7,787 nt of DNA from Paraspadella gotoi (Eukaryota > Animalia > Chaetognatha). The translations under genes were made by a program, and so were the position numbers. This document shows, piece after piece, positions 1-7,787 of the stretch (positions are counted from its first letter, which is position 1; each line of letters begins with the position of its first letter). The stretch is from contig JBJCIZ010001083.1 of the NCBI GenBank assembly GCA_051294375.1, forward strand, positions 1 through 7,787. The letters are read 5' to 3'. Under the pieces are notes generated by a model that saw nothing but the letters and a program-made list of their open reading frames with translations, was not told where the DNA came from and searched no databases.

Positions 1-2419
1 CTCCTCGAGAAGAGAGCCTTATATTGAAAAAACTACCGCTATGCCAGGAAGAGCACGATTCTATTGCAAGAAAAACAACTAATTCACGGATCTTTTCCTC
101 TATATCTAGAATCTACTACTCTCTCTTATATCTCTGAAAAGATAGACATTATGTGTAACGATCGTCTCGTGTCTAGAGTTTCTAATTCTGGCAAAAGTTG
201 GTTGATAACTAGTATTTTATCCTATAAATCTGTCATATACGAATAGAAACTATCCAAAAAACGCAGTAAATGCAACACAAAGAGGATATATATTAGAAAA
301 AGATACCAGTGGCAAATAACTATAGGAGTTAATATCAAGTGTGATCTTCATCAAGTTGCGGGCATGGAACATGTGGATAGTCGTTAGTATGAGAAGTGCA
401 ATAACGTCGTATATATATATATTAGAGAGATCAGTGGGAGTTAGATACGGTAATGAGTATGACGGAACGTAGCTCGAGACGCACGTGGTAAAGTACATCA
501 AACATAAAAAGGCAAATAAACGAAATCAAGCCACAAACAAAGACGCTAAAGATATGACAATCACACCACAAAATCAATTGGTTTGGTTCAAATAGATATA
601 AGAAAATCCATAATTATTATTTTATAAATAACTGGACACAAGAAAATCGAGGAAAAAAAAATGCAGTAAAAATTTAAAGTATGGAAACGGCAAAAAAAGA
701 AAATTTACACGAACGCGAGATGTTTGTTTTAAAATATGGGGCTTGGGAAATGACCAATAGATTTATATTAGAGATAGATTATACTCTCTCGCCTTCGCTC
801 AACGGTAGATTCTCGCTAATTTGTGCAGAACGACTGTGATCGTTGCGATACACGATATGTACCATGCAAATTCAAAACGCAAATAATACAAAGACATAAC
901 AACAAATTAATTACCATATAATACAATTACTATTAGTTAAAAAATTACTCATCTGACACTACATACTCACTTCCACTTCGATCACTGTTACTACCCGAGT
1001 TCTCGAGCGCATACGTCAACAATCTGCTCGCTCGTTGCTCAGCCAGCAGAACGCAGAGAAGGAAAGAGAAAGTACAGAGTGACGAGAACGTGATCTCGCA
1101 GAGAGAAAAGCTGACACGCATGGCTCGCTCACGGCTGGAGGCGGAACTCTGTCTCTGACACTCTCTGGCTGCTGCCAGTTACTCCATGCGCTTCCGACTT
1201 GCGAATTGTCCTGAGATGAGGATTGAAAAAAAAGAAGATTCGAAAAAAAAGAGAGTATCAGAGTAGAGATGCAGGATAAGGGCAGTGCGCACTCGCTACT
1301 GTCAGAGTAGCACATCTACTCTGACGATGCTCGACGCATCAAGATATTGCAGATGTCAAGAGAGGAGAGAGAGATACGAGATGACGCAGGACGAGAGGAG
1401 AAAGGCTATGGAAGCCTGGAATGAACAGACGACTTGCAGACGGGGTGCGGGAGTAGTAAAGCAGAATATATGAGAAAAACAAGGCATACCTAAATAATAT
1501 AATTGCGGCGTTGTTTCATAAACACATTGAATAGATGTCTCCACCGATAATAGAAAATCTCGGATGTTTATGAAATTAGTCAGCTTGAAGTCTTTGTAGT
1601 GAAGAAGAAAAGCCGTCGCATATATATAGAAAGTAGTGGCGATAAGTAAAAGTTTTAGAAAGGATATACAACCAGATACACTTCAGCACGCCTTAATTTC
1701 TTCTTCTCTATAAAGAGACGGAAATCGCACTACATGATAAGAATGAAATATTGGTAAAATAGAGGATTTGTCTCACACAGTCATAGTCAAATCACAGACG
1801 CAGAATAAGAGAGAAAGGAACAAAGCTGGACCAGTCATGACTGGAAAGGCCGCTGCAGGTCACTGGCAGAGCTGAACTCGTCGCTTTCTAAAAATTTTAT
1901 TTTTGTTTTAAAAAGAGAGCAAAGAAAATATATTATAATTTAAAGAAATAAAGAAAGGCAAAAATGATGTTACAATTGTTTACAATTGGAATTTTTCCAA
2001 TTTTTTCCAATCGCAGCTTGTAAAGAGATTTAATTATATATTTGTATTAAAATTAAGATATAGCTTCTCATTAAAAAAATCCTTTGAGTTCCGCTTTTTA
2101 TTAAAAATTTTATAATAAATTTTTTGAATTTCATCTTCAATATTATATATGTGCAATATGTAATTAGATTAAAAGCATTTATATACTAATTTGGATAGTT
2201 ATACATGAGTACTTTTAATCTTGCATTTGCATATCTGCAGTATGATCATAATGAAGTGGAAATTCAAACAAAAAATACTTAAATCCAAATGTAATATGAA
2301 AAATATCACACTATTTCAAGATGAAAAGCCATATCTAAATTTTTAACTTACTATGATCGCACACTTTTGTAAAAACTTTATCATAATTCATAATAATTTT
2401 TTATTTAAAAAAAAACGGT

Positions 2420-2575
2420 AAGTCACAGCCAACCTATAAAAGCGTAGTAGTTTTTATATATGAAAACAGCGTGACGGACGACGACGACGACGACGAACGA
2501 CTACGTCACAAGAGAAGCAACCCTAAAACATTATAAGAGCCTGACCCGGCTTCGCCGGTCAAGGCTCGATAAAAA
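2420..2575 (-). mobile_element. 5' end of a Helentron-associated/DINE-1-like (HINE) element, truncated
   Basis: Minus strand reads TTTTT-ATCGAGCC, then hairpin GAGCCT..CGGCGAAGCCG..AGGCTC (2537-2567), then a (GTC)n/GTCCGTC microsatellite (2473-2496). This is the DINE-1/HINE layout. Left boundary is uncertain. Confidence 0.65.
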
Positions 2576-2793
2576 TCGTTGTTCCATCCAAAACTGTCTT
2601 TCCTAATTCAGAATTAATATTATTTCATTATTAGTTGTTGAAGAGACATCATATGCACACGCACAGGAGTTAATGATTTAGTATTAACCATATAAACTTT
2701 TTTTTTGAAAAGAAAAAAAAATATTTAGTATTAGGCAATTCGTGGTGGGATTTATAAGTATAATTTTCTTACTTTTTTGCCAACATTTTGATT

Positions 2794-2931
2794 CTTATGA
2801 ACTAATCATTTTTAAAGGCAGTCCAGAGTAAAAGTAAATTGTTCCAGAAAAAGTCAGGTAGAGAGAGAGAGAGAGAAAGAGAGAGAAACAAAATACAAAA
2901 GAACTGCCTTGAAAAATGATTTGTTCATAAG
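2794..2931. mobile_element. MITE-like element, 31-bp terminal inverted repeats with internal (GA)n
   Basis: CTTATGAACTAATCATTTTTAAAGGCAGTCC (2794-2824) versus the reverse complement of 2901-2931: 28/31 identical. TA on the right and TT on the left, so the TSD is unclear. Confidence 0.75.
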
Positions 2932-3039
2932 TAGAAACCCACTATGAAATTAATTTCAATAGGGGCGGGGGTTCAAAACTTTAGTCTTGAAGTCTACTTT
3001 TAGGTAAAAAAAAATTTATTCAAAAAGTTCGATTTTAAT

Positions 3040-3081
3040 GTCTCTCTGGAGGCGTGGGTTCGAATCCCACCACTGTCACCA
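3040..3081 (+). pseudogene. 3' half of tRNA-Leu including encoded CCA
   Basis: GTCTC-TCTG-GAGGC long variable arm, GTGGG-TTCGAAT-CCCAC T arm, CACTGTC-A-CCA acceptor 3' strand. Nearly identical to animal tRNA-Leu 3' halves as recalled. No D or anticodon arm upstream. Confidence 0.9.
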
Positions 3082-3084
3082 CAT

Positions 3085-3420
3085 TTAAGGAAAAACTCAT
3101 GGATTTCTATGGACGAAATCAAGAAGAAGTTTTATTCTGAGAATAAAGGTGACGGTGAGACGCGCGCAGGAGTCTTGATCAATTCTACTGAAACTAGAAC
3201 AAGCTAAGTCTATTTATATCTTGGGAAGAGGATCGGCAACGTGGGTAAAATTTACAATTCAATGATTCTGCAAGCTGATTGGTCGATTCCGTTCGTGCTT
3301 GACCAATCAAGATTCGGCGATTCCATTTCGCCCGAGCCTCCGATCCGATTCGATTTTGGTGGCTTGATACTCCTGCGATGATGCTTTTATTGTTGCTATT
3401 AAAATTACAATATTACTATA
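3085..3420 (-). mobile_element. Probable LTR of a tRNA-Leu-primed retroelement (decayed termini)
   Basis: Minus-strand order is inverted CCAAT pair (3301-3309, 3276-3284), TATAAATA (3211-3218), AATAAA (3131-3136), then TGGTGACAGTGGTGGGAT (Leu PBS). The region is GC-richer than its flanks. Termini are not canonical TG/CA, so boundaries are approximate. Confidence 0.6.
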
Positions 3421-4113
3421 TAATGATAAAAATTTTTTTTAATCAATCTTAACTTTTTTGATGGATTCTGATAGAGCATAAAAAGTTAAATGAAAAATTT
3501 AACTACAACTTTCAAAAATATTTATGTTTTCTTGGTCAAAATTAAAAAAAAGTAATAAAATTATCGAAAAATGATGATGATGATGATTATAAATAGTTTT
3601 TCATATTTTTTACATACTTATGATCAAAATATCGAAAAAAGAATTATACTTTGTGTAGCCTTTCCTATTTATAAATAAATATTAAAAAATTAATATATGG
3701 AGTATGGAATAATATAAAAAACTTGTCTATTCAATTTTTTTTAAAAATGTCTAAATTTTCGTTTGAGCAGGTGCTTAATTCAATTTCTTAACCACCTTAC
3801 AGAGTTAGTCTCCCCCTATCATAAGAATCAAAATATTAGCATGAAAGTAATAAAAATGAACTTGTAAATTCTATTATGAATTGCTTAATACTAAATATTT
3901 GTTATTCCTTGTCAAAACCAAAAAATATTTAATAATTTTATATTGCTATATTATTTATTATAATGAAACTTGATATGATATACTCAAGGTTTGAATAAGA
4001 GTCGTCTTACTTCTAAAACCCTTGGGACTAAAGTTAAATGAAACTAAATAGAAAAAAACTAATTAATAAAGTTTATACAGCTTATTAAAACTGATCTTAA
4101 ATTTGTATCAGAT

Positions 4114-4390: not shown

Positions 4391-5137
4391 GAAAAATCGT
4401 TGCTTGAACTACTTCAAACTCTTTCTAATTCAAAAACGCGATGAAAGAAAGGATTTCACATAATGGTATAAATGATGATATTGCTGGATTAAAGGTTTTT
4501 TTTAAGGAAAAGAAAAGAAAATTATAAATCTGATTAACTTTTTGATGCATGTTTCTCTTCTCCTTCACCTGGAAAAACTTAAAAATAGGGTATTCCCTCT
4601 AAAGATTTACATAAAACTTTATGAAAAAAGGGTCTAACTTCCGACTATGGTTTTTGAGCAAAAAAATGGTATGCCAGTAAAAAAATTACTGATGAAAAAA
4701 ATTAATTTAGTAAAAGGTATAAAAAATTAAAACCAGGAATTGTTAAAATTAGCAAAGTCTCATTAATTAAATTTAATTGAAATGAAATTTTGAATATTTA
4801 CATTTAAAGTTAAAAGTCCTTTGGCTATTAAAAATAATTGATAAATATGATAGGATTTTTTTATGATATGGATGATAATCCTTTGTGATAAAGCTGTCAT
4901 ATAACAGTAAAAAACCATTAGCAGTCAGAATAGATCAAAAACCTTTAATAATACATATTTAATTGATTATCGAGCACTATTTCCGGTTTGGGACACGCCC
5001 ACTATTGATGAAAACCATTTTTTGAACATTTTTTGTCTAAGTACTACTTATTAAATAATTGTACTAATTGCAGGATAAGTAAAAAACAACTGACTAACTT
5101 TTCATTTGTAGTAAACAGAAAAAATTCATATTGTAGT

Positions 5138-5356
5138 TGCAGGGGTACATAATTATATTTCATTGACAGTAAACAGATACAAGGAGATGTGTACATGAAG
5201 AGATCGAATATTGCGACTGTAACCAGAGAATGGGACACCGGCTAAGAAAGAGAGAGGGAGAGAGAGAGAGAGAGAGTCAGTAACCGGCTTTCCTTTCCAC
5301 TAAACATAGTGGCCAGCTGGGGTCAACCCCGTGGCGACGAAACCGTCGTCGCCACA
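5138..5356 (-). repeat. 3' LTR (219 bp)
   Basis: Minus strand reads TGTGGCGACG...TACCCCTGCA. It is preceded on the minus strand by the PPT and contains a (GA)n tract and a terminal 10-bp hairpin GTGGCGACGA/TCGTCGCCAC. Confidence 0.93.
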
Positions 5357-5370
5357 TCCCCGCCCCCCGC
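5357..5370 (-). other. Polypurine tract
   Basis: Minus strand GCGGGGGGCGGGGA lies directly before the TG of the 3' LTR. Confidence 0.85.
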
Positions 5371-5630
5371 GAAAAGTCAGAATGACTTTCTTCTTTTGGT
5401 GGATGGCGTGACTGTTTGGGGGCGTAGGCTGGAGGGTGACTACTTGAAAAAGTCCGCGCATACTTGTGACGAGGCGCTGCTGGCCGAGAAAAAGGCGGAG
5501 CTGCGCAAACAGCGGCGTAGGTTCGTGGAGGCGGTGCTGACTTTAAAGGCGCGGAAAAGGAAGTCGGCTGTGATGACCATGGAGGTGGCGGATCCCACCA
5601 AGGAAGTCGCGGAGCCTGCGGAGATGTTGG

Positions 5631-5684
5631 AGCCGGCCGAGATGGCGGAAATGGCCGAGATGGCGGAGCCGGCCGAGAGGGTGG
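5631..5684 (-). repeat. 3 x 18-bp coding tandem repeat (PPSRPA/PPSRPF/PPSRPA)
   Basis: Visible in both the DNA (GGCCGAGATGGCGG units) and the translation. Confidence 0.9.
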
Positions 5685-5885
5685 AATCTGCCGACATTGC
5701 AGAGCCGTCCTGGAAGGCGTTGGATGCGTTGGTATAACTCCAAGGTCGCGACGGACGGCGCGTATAGCTGAAATAGCCACGCCAATGAGACGGTGAAAGT
5801 CCTTGCTCAGAGACGAAGCCGACAGCCGCGCTGCATTGAGGACATCGATAGCGGCCGTCATGGCGTCGGCGGCATTTACTTTGCC

Positions 5886-6101
5886 GTCGAATTTTGTCTG
5901 TGTTGCAGCATCAACTGATGTCTGGTCTTCTGTTGCAACTTCGGCGTTGACCATGAGTTTGTCTTCTGTCGTACAAGCGGCGTCTTTGCACTTGATAGCA
6001 TTAGTGAGAGTGGAGGCGTTTTTGTAGATAATGGAATTAGTTGCGGTAGAGGCGTGAACTGTTGTAAAAGCATTTGTGGAGGTTGAGACTTCTCTTGTAT
6101 T
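5886..6101 (-). repeat. Six degenerate 36-bp/12-aa coding repeats ending in T-x-T-like motifs
   Basis: NTREVSTSTNAF / TTVHASTATNSI / IYKNASTLTNAI / KCKDAACTTEDK / LMVNAEVATEDQ / TSVDAATQTKFD. Confidence 0.75.
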
Positions 6102-6386
6102 TGACGGGCGCCAACCAGGAGGGGGTGCTTTCACCAGGGACTTGAATGATGCTGGTGCTGATACGAGAGGCGCCGCATTTCTTATTTATTTTTGCAAGAA
6201 GATGACGTCATAAAAGTTATTCATTTCTTCCTCCGAATTGAATGCAAAAACGAAGTTTATAGTCCCAGCGTCGTCGATGATTTTTATATCCGTCATTTGG
6301 GAAGTAAACCTTAATTTGTTCGAGATTTCGACGTTGCGCTCGCATTTTCCGTTACGTAACCCATCGCTGATGAAATAAATATATTT

Positions 6387-6620
6387 TGAAGAGACAGTAA
6401 TTATTTTTATGTGTTAGTGACAGAACCGTTCAATATAAGCAGTCCCTGAGCTTCGGATCAGGCTGTAACACCGTGTTAGAGGCGGGTTAAGCGCTCCGTC
6501 CCTCTTAACTGCTAGGCGGCCACCGGGCTAGAACCCCGGACCTTTGGGTTGGCAGGTGAATGACTTGCCTCCGGCACCAATGGCCGCTGATGAACGATGG
6601 GTGGATTTTAGTCCACCATA
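6387..6620 (-). mobile_element. Nested 234-bp solo-LTR-like insertion containing a tRNA-derived sequence (Helenus/Pol III-TRIM-like)
   Basis: Absent from paralogous ORF copy 1. Flanked by a 4-bp ATTT duplication (6383-6386, 6621-6624). Minus-strand ends are TATGGTGG...TCTCTTCA (TG>TA...CA). No poly-A tail. Confidence 0.85.
6515..6587 (-). pseudogene. tRNA-like module (possibly Gly-GCC derived), degenerate; A/B-box-like Pol III promoter
   Basis: 73 nt with a perfect 7-bp acceptor stem GCGGCCA/TGGCCGC, A-box-like TGGTGCCGGAGG, loop CTGCCAA, variable region AGGTC and T arm CCGGG-GTTCTAG-CCCGG. The anticodon stem does not pair, so it is not a functional tRNA. Confidence 0.75.
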
Positions 6621-6723
6621 ATTTATTACCGGTCAGGCTTTTGACAATTCTTAGTAGACCGGTGAATAAGGCTTTATCGTTTCCCACTTTGAACATAAGA
6701 ATGCCGTCGACCAAGTGAACATG

Positions 6724-6733
6724 NNNNNNNNNN
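6724..6733. other. Assembly gap (10 N, true size unknown)
   Basis: Run of n between the two ORF copies. Confidence 1.
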
Positions 6734-7291
6734 ATTAGTCACTAATTTAGTGAGAGTGGAGGCGTTTTTGTAGACAATGGAATTAGTTGTAGTAGAGGCA
6801 TGAACTGTTGTAAAAGCGATAGTGGAGGTTGAGCCTTCTCTTGTATTTGATGGCCGCCAACCAGGAGGGGGTTCTTTCACAAGGGACGCGAGTGATGCTG
6901 GTGCAGGTACAGTTCCTGGTATGAGAGGCACTGCCATCGTTGATTTTGCCGTATTTGTTATTGTTTTTTGCAAGAAGATGACGTCGTAAAAGTTTTTCAT
7001 TTCACTCTCAGAATTGAATGCGAAAACAAAGTTTATAGTCTTTGCGTCGTCGATGATTTTCATATCCGTCATTTGGGAAGAAAACCTTAAGTTTTTAGAG
7101 ATTTTGACTTTACGCTCGCATTTTCCGTTCTGAAGCCCATCGCTGATGAAATTAATGTATTTATTACCAGAGAAATCTTTGACGACTCTTAACAGACCGG
7201 TGAATACGGCTTTGTTGTTTCCCACTTTGGTCATGAGAATTCCGTCGACAAAATGTACATGTGCCACAAAAAGTTCGGTCGTATTTTCCAT
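6734..7291 (-). CDS. Element ORF copy 1 (5' part, runs into the assembly gap): divergent WH1/EVH1-like (PH-fold) domain at aa ~1-109, then Pro-rich linker and start of the TxT repeat array
   Basis: ATG at 7291 in AAAAATGG context, ~30 nt after the PBS; open to the gap. TGLLRVVKD..KY....GLQNG...FAFNSESEMKNFYDVI aligns by eye with WASP WH1 (CGAVCFVKD..SY...GLQAG...LNFADEDEAQAFRALV). Comparison with copy 2 shows many synonymous changes and in-frame indels. Confidence 0.8.
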
Positions 7292-7322
7292 TTTTAATTT
7301 GTTTCAGAAGGGTTTCCACGGA

Positions 7323-7340
7323 TTCTCGTCGGGCTCACCA
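7323..7340 (-). other. Primer-binding site, best resembling the 3' end of tRNA-Trp
   Basis: Minus strand TGGTGAGCCCGACGAGAA starts with TGG (complement of CCA), 4 nt after the LTR's CA. Plus strand TTCTCGTCGGGCTCACCA resembles the animal tRNA-Trp 3' end (ATCACGTCGGGGTCACCA, from memory). The isoacceptor call is less certain than the PBS call. Confidence 0.85.
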
Positions 7341-7344
7341 GTTA

Positions 7345-7455
7345 TGTAGGGGTGCATAATTATATTTCATTGACAGTAAACAGATTCAAGGAGATGTGTA
7401 CATGAAGAGATCGAATATTGCGACTGTAACCAGAGAACGGGACACCGGCTAAGAA

Positions 7456-7493
<38 letters not shown>

Positions 7494-7576
7494 TCAGTAG
7501 CCGGCTTTCCTTGCGACCACTAAACATAGTGGCCAGCTGGGGTCAACCCCGTGGCGACGAAACCGGCGTCGCCACA
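7345..7576 (-). repeat. 5' LTR (232 bp)
   Basis: Minus strand reads TGTGGCGACG...CACCCCTACA. It matches 5138-5356 apart from about 6 substitutions, one small indel and (GA)n length. It is followed by the PBS. Confidence 0.93.
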
Positions 7577-7669
7577 TAGTCCACGCCAACTTCCGGTAAA
7601 TTGTGCGTAGGTCTAATGCAAAATCTGATTGACGACACCTTGTTAATCGTTTTAAGCACTTAAAATTAT

Positions 7670-7787
7670 ACTAGAAACTGTACAGGATTGTGAAAATTTT
7701 CGACTGCATGGTTAAAAAATCTTAAAAGCAATAGGGATCGAGCCTAATTTTGATGATAACCAAATATTGATGCGATGATAACCAAAT
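7670..7787 (-). mobile_element. Probable 3' end of another copy of the same HINE-like family, running off the window
   Basis: ACTAG terminus, imperfect hairpin at ~7676-7713, ATCGAGCC (7737-7744, inverse of GGCTCGAT at 2563-2570), then 22-bp-period repeat GATGATAACCAAAT x2. Confidence 0.5.

Follow-up and report, generated by a model that had tools for sequence, protein, structure and literature searches.

The beta-rich domain that opens a minus-strand reading frame in the 7,787-nucleotide stretch of Paraspadella gotoi DNA analysed here (the window) is cargo carried by an LTR retroelement and not the stand-alone gene as which the initial annotation had treated it, a setting that changes the likely function of the domain. 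We give about an even chance to the reading that a non-autonomous CsRn1-type retroelement carries, in place of gag-pol, an adaptor gene that was captured in the distant past and has since diverged.

The boundaries of the element are defined by its LTRs, target-site duplication, primer-binding site and polypurine tract (Table 1). Aligned with each other, the two LTRs give 212 matches, 7 mismatches and 13 gap columns (97% alike, 3.2% apart). The first 12 nucleotides of the primer-binding site are an exact copy of the tRNA-Trp consensus of the CsRn1 clade and the sole match to it in the window, where 0.0008 would be expected, and 12 of the 15 nucleotides in the polypurine tract are purines, compared with 7-9 of 15 at the three remaining LTR junctions. 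A tRNA-Trp primer-binding consensus, a 4-bp target duplication and a polypurine tract are among the features of this clade given in excerpts of PMC2582038. Contigs from three of the four runs compared (X2, X6 and X9, from two studies) join position 5133 directly to 7577, skipping 2443 nucleotides, which is the length of the element plus one 4-bp duplication. Because the flanks of the element are themselves a repeat, these empty-site contigs probably come from further copies of that repeat that lack the insertion.

Table 1. Features of the LTR element and its cargo, in window coordinates.
Feature	Position	Strand	Basis
LTR element, whole (2,439 bp)	5138-7576	-	LTRs, target-site duplication, primer-binding site, polypurine tract
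5' LTR, 232 bp, TGT...ACA, contains a GA/TC microsatellite	7345..7576	-	alignment with 3' LTR
3' LTR, 219 bp, TGT...GCA	5138..5356	-	alignment with 5' LTR
Primer-binding site, 4 nt past 5' LTR	7323..7340	-	CsRn1-clade tRNA-Trp consensus
Polypurine tract, abuts 3' LTR	5357..5371	-	purine count
Target-site duplication TAGT, left	5134..5137		flank comparison and empty-site joint
Target-site duplication TAGT, right	7577..7580		chance of a 4-nt match 0.005
Copy A, 110-aa beta-rich domain without Trp, likely PH-like/EVH1 fold	6962..7291	-	ORF, motifs, models
Copy A linker, Ser/Thr/Pro/Ala-rich, in frame into gap	6734..6961	-	translation
Assembly gap, 10 N, true length not fixed by the N count	6724..6733		
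Copy B of the domain	6186..6723	-	76% and 83% identical to copy A in two pieces
234-bp very high-copy repeat within copy B	6387..6620		depth, loose contig ends
Open frame after copy B, 302 codons, ends inside 3' LTR	5277..6185	-	translation, shuffles
Antisense open frame, 142 codons from GTG, first ATG only late	5309..5737	+	ORF list

The reading frame of the flagged domain starts 53 nucleotides inward of the 5' LTR, at the position where gag would be expected. A six-frame scan of the sequenced part of 5138-7576, which leaves the N gap unread, detected no CHCC, CCHC, YxDD or GPY motif; two loose matches to gag/pol motif patterns both lay on the antisense strand. Neither the Gag signature of autonomous members (CX2HX9CX3C) nor their Pol domains were found in the same sequenced part, and Pfam and NCBIfam gave no gag or pol match for the ORFs scanned. 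Since gag and pol motifs are absent from all frames that could be read, the element is likely to be non-autonomous as far as it has been sequenced, although the N gap, which none of the contigs listed bridges, could hide gag-pol. The cis signals are of the CsRn1 type of Ty3/Gypsy elements, yet judged by its sequence the element is not an autonomous member of that clade.

Several further observations were made on the element and its surroundings. In runs X1 and X2 a joint between 5395 and 7323 skips 1,927 nucleotides and would leave a miniature element of 512 bp with the order LTR-PBS-PPT-LTR; the sides of this joint are short (23-26 nucleotides), making it weak. The segment 5279-5371, which combines the LTR start and the polypurine tract, reaches in X1 and X2 about 70 times the depth of locus-specific contigs and far exceeds the internal region, and many more elements or solo LTRs, perhaps including the helper, may share this end. 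A pattern scan for an LTR end followed by the primer-binding site returned four loci, none of which is related by blastn or tblastn. In one of these unrelated loci (L004, 1-9908) a bacterial-looking surface-protein ORF (3-3851) is joined to AT/GT-repeat DNA holding decayed gag- and protease-like frames, and the record looks chimeric or contaminated. The window is AT-rich and microsatellite-rich and has no other recognisable gene, a composition that seems typical of an animal genome. On its plus strand, 3039-3081 resembles the 3' arm of a tRNA with a CCA end; it matched only the tRNA-like end of a tmRNA model, and ARAGORN found no whole tRNA there. Two 99-bp inverted arms (2702-2800 and 3819-3917), 79% complementary and 1,018 nucleotides apart, are possibly an old miniature inverted-repeat element, and 7697-7787 is the beginning of another very high-copy repeat, which contains short tandem units.

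The frame of copy A begins with the ATG at 7291 and runs for 186 codons into the assembly gap. Contigs identical to the window cover parts of the domain in X1 (7136-7295), X2 (7139-7295), X4 (7001-7091) and X6 (7007-7091), and with identical pieces in independent runs the copy A sequence is not an assembly error. The final 13 nucleotides of its linker do not agree with copy B, and the contig may simply end raggedly there. The initial annotation had described a beta-rich segment of 109 residues at 6965..7291 with the motif spacing of a WASP WH1 domain. The domain is real, one residue longer and coding beyond chance, and every motif cited is present: GLLRVVKD at residue 32, Tyr45, GLQNG at 52 and FNSESEMKNF at 92, together with NNKAVFTG at 25 and MKII at 77. 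The 110 residues include no Trp and no Pro, Tyr occurs at 45 and 102 only, and the interval from 71 to 87 is free of aromatic residues.

Copy B spans 6723-6186 and its linker continues to about 6001, with 80-82% nucleotide identity to copy A. This copy is broken, both by an insert (6387-6620) and by a stop at 6188-6186, and because one X1 contig (6078-6432) covers the junction of the insert and the stop with no difference, the breaks are real. The insert is a repeat whose depth exceeds that of locus-specific contigs by a factor of 1.7-3.2 x 10^4; it has loose contig ends at 6386/6387 and 6620/6622, ATTT duplicated at both sides and, by eye, a middle part that resembles a tRNA on the minus strand. 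Ahead of this part lies a terminal hairpin (about 6598-6620), an arrangement that is SINE-like with an unusual head; an Rfam search returned no match for the repeat. Reading this segment as an intron was rejected, since it belongs to a very high-copy repeat and copy A runs on without interruption at the corresponding place. In run X9, which we guess to be RNA, the ratio of repeat depth to locus depth equals that of the DNA runs, so that the run is silent on transcription.

Downstream of copy B the frame stays open into the 3' LTR; a fully open frame arose in 2 of 5000 shuffles of 5357-6185. Its 302 codons begin with a linker of Ser, Thr, Ala and Pro, pass through an Ala/Thr-rich part and a short stretch of amphipathic appearance, and close with a tail that is 28% Pro. 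They have no family match in Pfam (one AraC row at E 0.2) or NCBIfam, and residues 55-175 gave no usable match in the ESM Atlas. By count, an intact one-domain member would encode roughly 410 residues. The antisense frame that overlaps this region, likewise without a family match in Pfam or NCBIfam, would encode a Lys/Arg/Glu-rich stretch and contains a 9-nucleotide repeat (Ala-Glu-x) that varies mainly at the third positions of its first two codons. This pattern leaves it uncertain whether the tail is translated as Pro-rich protein, and the Pro-rich frame may be a by-product of the overlapping GC-rich antisense frame. Among the differences in 5357-5740, two of eight are synonymous in the plus frame and likewise in the long minus frame, counts that favour neither as the frame under selection.

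Sequence searches returned no relative of the domain. Queries of 110 and 186 residues matched no Pfam family at E up to 10, including WH1 (PF00568), DCP1 and Ran_BP1; NCBIfam gave one row at E 0.025, with 14.6 bits against a cut-off of 221; and PDB sequences held no relative either: one search yielded designed Kelch repeats and BREX proteins, which we discarded because their scores were weak or summed over repeats, and a second yielded a single row at E 2. No relative emerged from word-seeded searches of 5.8 billion proteins or from searches of viral and metagenome contigs, and HMMER over 1.84 billion protein representatives, a library whose eukaryotic share is unspecified, produced 0 matches. 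A diverged Gag was also considered and rejected, the domain being beta-rich and devoid of the Cys-His signature. A recent copy of a conserved EVH1 or RanBD gene would match Pfam, and therefore either the capture is old or the donor was already divergent.

Comparison of the two copies indicates that the domain has been under purifying selection. Over 98 domain codons dN/dS is 0.24 (Fisher p 1e-5), from 20.7 synonymous changes in 57.8 sites and 25.3 non-synonymous changes in 236.2 sites; in the linker the value is 0.40 over 54 codons (p 0.08). The pN/pS ratio is 0.30 in the coding frame and 0.48-1.70 in the five alternative frames. Among copies of the family, 16 of the 35 listed differences that fall in the domain are synonymous (p 4e-4), a count that is drawn from 40 of 77 difference rows and that overlaps the A/B comparison, so that it is not independent of it. 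The seven listed rows of insertions and deletions inside the element, from a table with four further rows, sum to multiples of three at each of five places. Other copies have losses of 5 and 31 nucleotides, and each run holds several distinct sequence variants, in which alleles are indistinguishable from copies and depth is not copy number. Such a pattern is what a mobile family would show if its members carry a coding gene and some of them are decaying. The synonymous divergence of the two copies (dS 0.49), set against LTRs that are 3.2% apart, makes the A/B divergence much older than the present insertion, from which it follows that the two copies arose by an old internal duplication or that the gap holds an internal LTR between two elements.

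Purifying selection is silent on its beneficiary, and selection at the level of the host gives the same signal. The copies could accordingly be host-selected retrogenes, members of a fast-evolving, lineage-specific EVH1-like host family that spread by LTR-mediated retroposition, with the element merely ferrying them; the constraint between A and B would then reflect host function, or the two would be host paralogues that diverged before capture. The dN/dS of the domain fits this account equally, as does a dS far above the LTR divergence, and in animals and maize LTR-flanked retrocopies that respread non-autonomously are sometimes constrained (PMC5131818, excerpts). A non-retroelement ORF between LTRs, a feature of such retrocopies, is present in several distinct contig variants. 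Against it, the primer-binding site, polypurine tract and both LTRs are intact, the site lies in a repeat and not at a fixed, gene-like position, several copies are broken, and no parent or orthologue appeared among the 1.84 billion representatives, with the same proviso on eukaryotic coverage. We regard host-selected retrogenes as unlikely, though the strongest of the alternatives.

A further question is which fold the domain adopts. The top match in the ESM Atlas was a cluster of EVH1_PP4R3 (0.86, 137 shared features, the family being annotated on 46% of members), followed by WH1 clusters at ranks 2, 3 and 12. Of the best ten rows, seven belong to EVH1_PP4R3, WH1 or Ran_BP1, two to VID27 families and one to none, so that nine of ten carry PH-like families; scores below 0.9 are leads only, and a third of shuffled proteins also yield ten matches of one clan. 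An AlphaFold model from the single sequence (pLDDT 44) was all-beta with a C-terminal strand, and it and its fold search were set aside as unreliable. When the two pieces of copy B were supplied as extra rows, the model (pLDDT 41) placed strands at 8-15, 18-23, 26-29, 33-38, 44-52, 56-63, 69-71 and 85-92, followed by a helix at 95-106. Strands followed by a C-terminal helix are the order expected of a PH-like domain.

Foldseek returned nothing at E up to 0.001, its best row being a ribosomal protein at E 0.1. Thirty-three of the best 48 rows are ribosomal chains; ten of the other fifteen are PH-like and align end to end over 111-134 columns, at non-significant E values of 0.12-0.43 and an rmsd of 12-16 A. 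They comprise two PH domains from OCRL entries, PP4R3A, the EVH1 domains of ENAH and Homer2, the RanBD of Nup2, the PRU domain of RPN13 and three chains that, from their lengths, we take to be Dcp1 and RanBP1. Scores are similar for the PP4R3, Ena, Homer, RanBD, OCRL and RPN13 domains. With VIA-align, ribosomal L9 came first (Z 5.1, rmsd 3.0, 78 aligned residues) and PH-like chains scored Z 3.0-3.6, and a viral fold library gave nothing at E up to 0.001. The check for a significant profile or structure match to a PH-like fold, which the initial annotation had named as decisive, thus gave none; formally this counts against its inference of a PH superfold, but the power of the test is weak because no deep alignment exists. 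Taking the Atlas, the pLDDT-41 model and Foldseek together as leads, we consider a PH-like (EVH1/RanBD) fold probable, with no significant profile or structure match behind it.

It is quite improbable that the domain instead has a different beta-rich fold under constraint, perhaps one taken from a virus, and resembles EVH1 through a chance agreement of hydrophobic residues. For this reading, both models have pLDDT values of 41-44, with the first similar to beta-barrel proteins of viruses and the second to ribosomal uL6 (each at Z about 5), and no search gave a significant match. Nevertheless the Atlas, the model and Foldseek lean to one superfold, although all start from the same sequence; the length and the terminal helix suit a PH-like domain; and neither viral contigs nor the viral fold library contained a relative.

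Within the PH-like fold, the designation 'WASP-type' has no advantage over PP4R3, RanBD or Dcp1, and an origin in the WASP lineage is improbable. The RanBD and Dcp1-like alternatives that the initial annotation also raised survive as non-significant Foldseek rows, set against the absence of a Pfam Ran_BP1 or DCP1 match. No WASP WH1 chain was named among the best 48 Foldseek rows or those of VIA-align, which excludes nothing. The least probable account is that of a true WASP-lineage WH1 domain with a changed ligand, or of a Dcp1-like EVH1 domain that targets P-bodies: the motif spacing, the WH1 clusters in the Atlas, a Dcp2:Dcp1 complex chain among the Foldseek rows listed and the Pro-rich region later in the copy B frame, like that of WASP-type architecture (PMC3362030, excerpts), are outweighed by the lack of a Pfam WH1, DCP1 or Ran_BP1 match at E up to 10, by PP4R3 EVH1 standing first in the Atlas with six PH-like domain types at similar scores in Foldseek, and by a remainder of the frame that matches no family and whose Pro-rich part may be a by-product of the overlapping frame.

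The binding groove was considered separately. Canonical EVH1 domains use Tyr16, Trp23 and Phe77 (Mena numbering; PMC7776573, excerpts), and WASP binds WIP across its Trp (PMC3362030, excerpts). Trp is absent from copy A and from the readable pieces of copy B, so the counterpart of Trp23 is missing; for Tyr16 and Phe77, there is no Tyr before residue 45 in copy A and Phe8 and Phe14 could substitute, no reliable alignment being available. The earlier proposal that the conserved Trp and the aromatics of the FHTF strand have been replaced agrees with the lack of Trp and of any aromatic at 71-87, while the exact register is not fixed by any reliable alignment. As the domain has no Trp, canonical polyproline binding appears unlikely from its sequence, and whatever the alignment, the predicted protein fails every Trp-keeping class of EVH1 domain on the defining residue. 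It may still work as a small protein-binding module.

The reading of a non-autonomous element with an anciently captured adaptor gene suggests the following mechanism. As in established retroelement biology, the LTR would drive a single RNA serving as both mRNA and template, which the Gag and Pol of an autonomous CsRn1-type helper would package and reverse-transcribe in trans; host tRNA-Trp would prime the reaction, and integration would leave the 4-bp duplication. The gene would stem from an ancient capture in which template switching to a cellular mRNA brought in a eukaryotic gene of EVH1/RanBD type; it would then have spread onward as a non-autonomous element and diverged beyond recognition by sequence. 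LTR-mediated capture with secondary spread is documented in animals (PMC5131818, excerpts). Instead of the canonical Tyr-Trp-Phe polyproline groove, the domain would use a different surface to bind a partner protein, with the low-complexity tail providing a second contact, and as an adaptor of PH/EVH1 fold the protein would probably aid packaging of the element's own RNA or escape from silencing. An accessory adaptor that benefits the element is favoured because the family in which the constraint persists has retained the structure of a transposon, purpose being the least certain step of the proposal. A more specific version, which we hold only tentatively, is a satellite retrotransposon family in which gag-pol was replaced by a captured PH/EVH1 adaptor that was duplicated, had its groove rewired and is under selection as an accessory to hijack the particles of a helper or a host factor of silencing or RNA decay. 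Such a satellite would make the domain gene the LTR-element counterpart of viral accessory genes.

Among the closest known systems is the CsRn1 clade (CsRn1, PwRn1 and AgCR-1 to -14; PMC2582038, excerpts), with which the element shares the tRNA-Trp primer-binding site, the 4-bp target-site duplication, the polypurine tract and LTRs that start with TGT. In contrast to that clade, the sequenced part has no helical CHCC Gag and no PR, RT, RH or IN motifs, and a beta-rich orphan ORF occupies the gag start. Excerpts of PMC3286476 contained no Trp-PBS data. LTR-mediated retrocopies in animals and maize Bs1 (excerpts of PMC5131818 and PMC7264820) resemble the element in that a coding sequence foreign to retroelements lies between LTRs and respreads non-autonomously; they are young and have a recognisable parent, whereas here no parent is detectable and the ORF is old (dS 0.49) and clearly constrained. 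Plant non-autonomous LTR elements with additional ORFs (PMC7264820, excerpts) have the same helper-dependent layout, LTR-PBS-single ORF-PPT-LTR, and likewise an overlapping antisense frame near the 3' LTR. Searches of the open-access literature returned no description of EVH1, WH1 or PH-like cargo in an LTR element.

TR-GAG and the mammalian MaLR likewise belong to the non-autonomous LTR elements in which a single ORF was kept or added. In elements of this group the ORF is gag-derived or lies beside gag-pol; here, by contrast, it looks like a captured signalling-adaptor fold that replaces gag-pol. Non-autonomous LTR elements are usually seen as passive RNA passengers, and the capture of host fragments as accidental and neutral. 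Clear purifying selection on a putatively captured gene of adaptor fold inside such an element suggests that parasites of retrotransposons can evolve accessory proteins of their own, and a single domain of 110 residues offers a small handle on the role of additional ORFs, a question left open in PMC7264820 (excerpts).

With the EVH1/WH1 domains of Ena/VASP, WASP, Homer, Spred and PP4R3 (PMC7776573 and PMC3362030, excerpts) the domain shares a length of about 110 residues, an N-terminal position, the spacing of motifs and, in the pLDDT-41 model, predicted strands followed by one C-terminal helix; it differs from them in having zero Trp, no Tyr before residue 45, no aromatic between 71 and 87 and no Pfam match. 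PP4R3 makes the difference clear: its EVH1 domain has exchanged Phe77 for Leu and kept Tyr and Trp (Tyr12, Trp20 and Leu70) and is followed by Smk-1 and Armadillo regions (PMC7776573, excerpts), whereas the domain described here has no Trp and is followed by a low-complexity tail that matches no family. It would thus be a natural EVH1-like variant without the Trp that all characterised classes keep.
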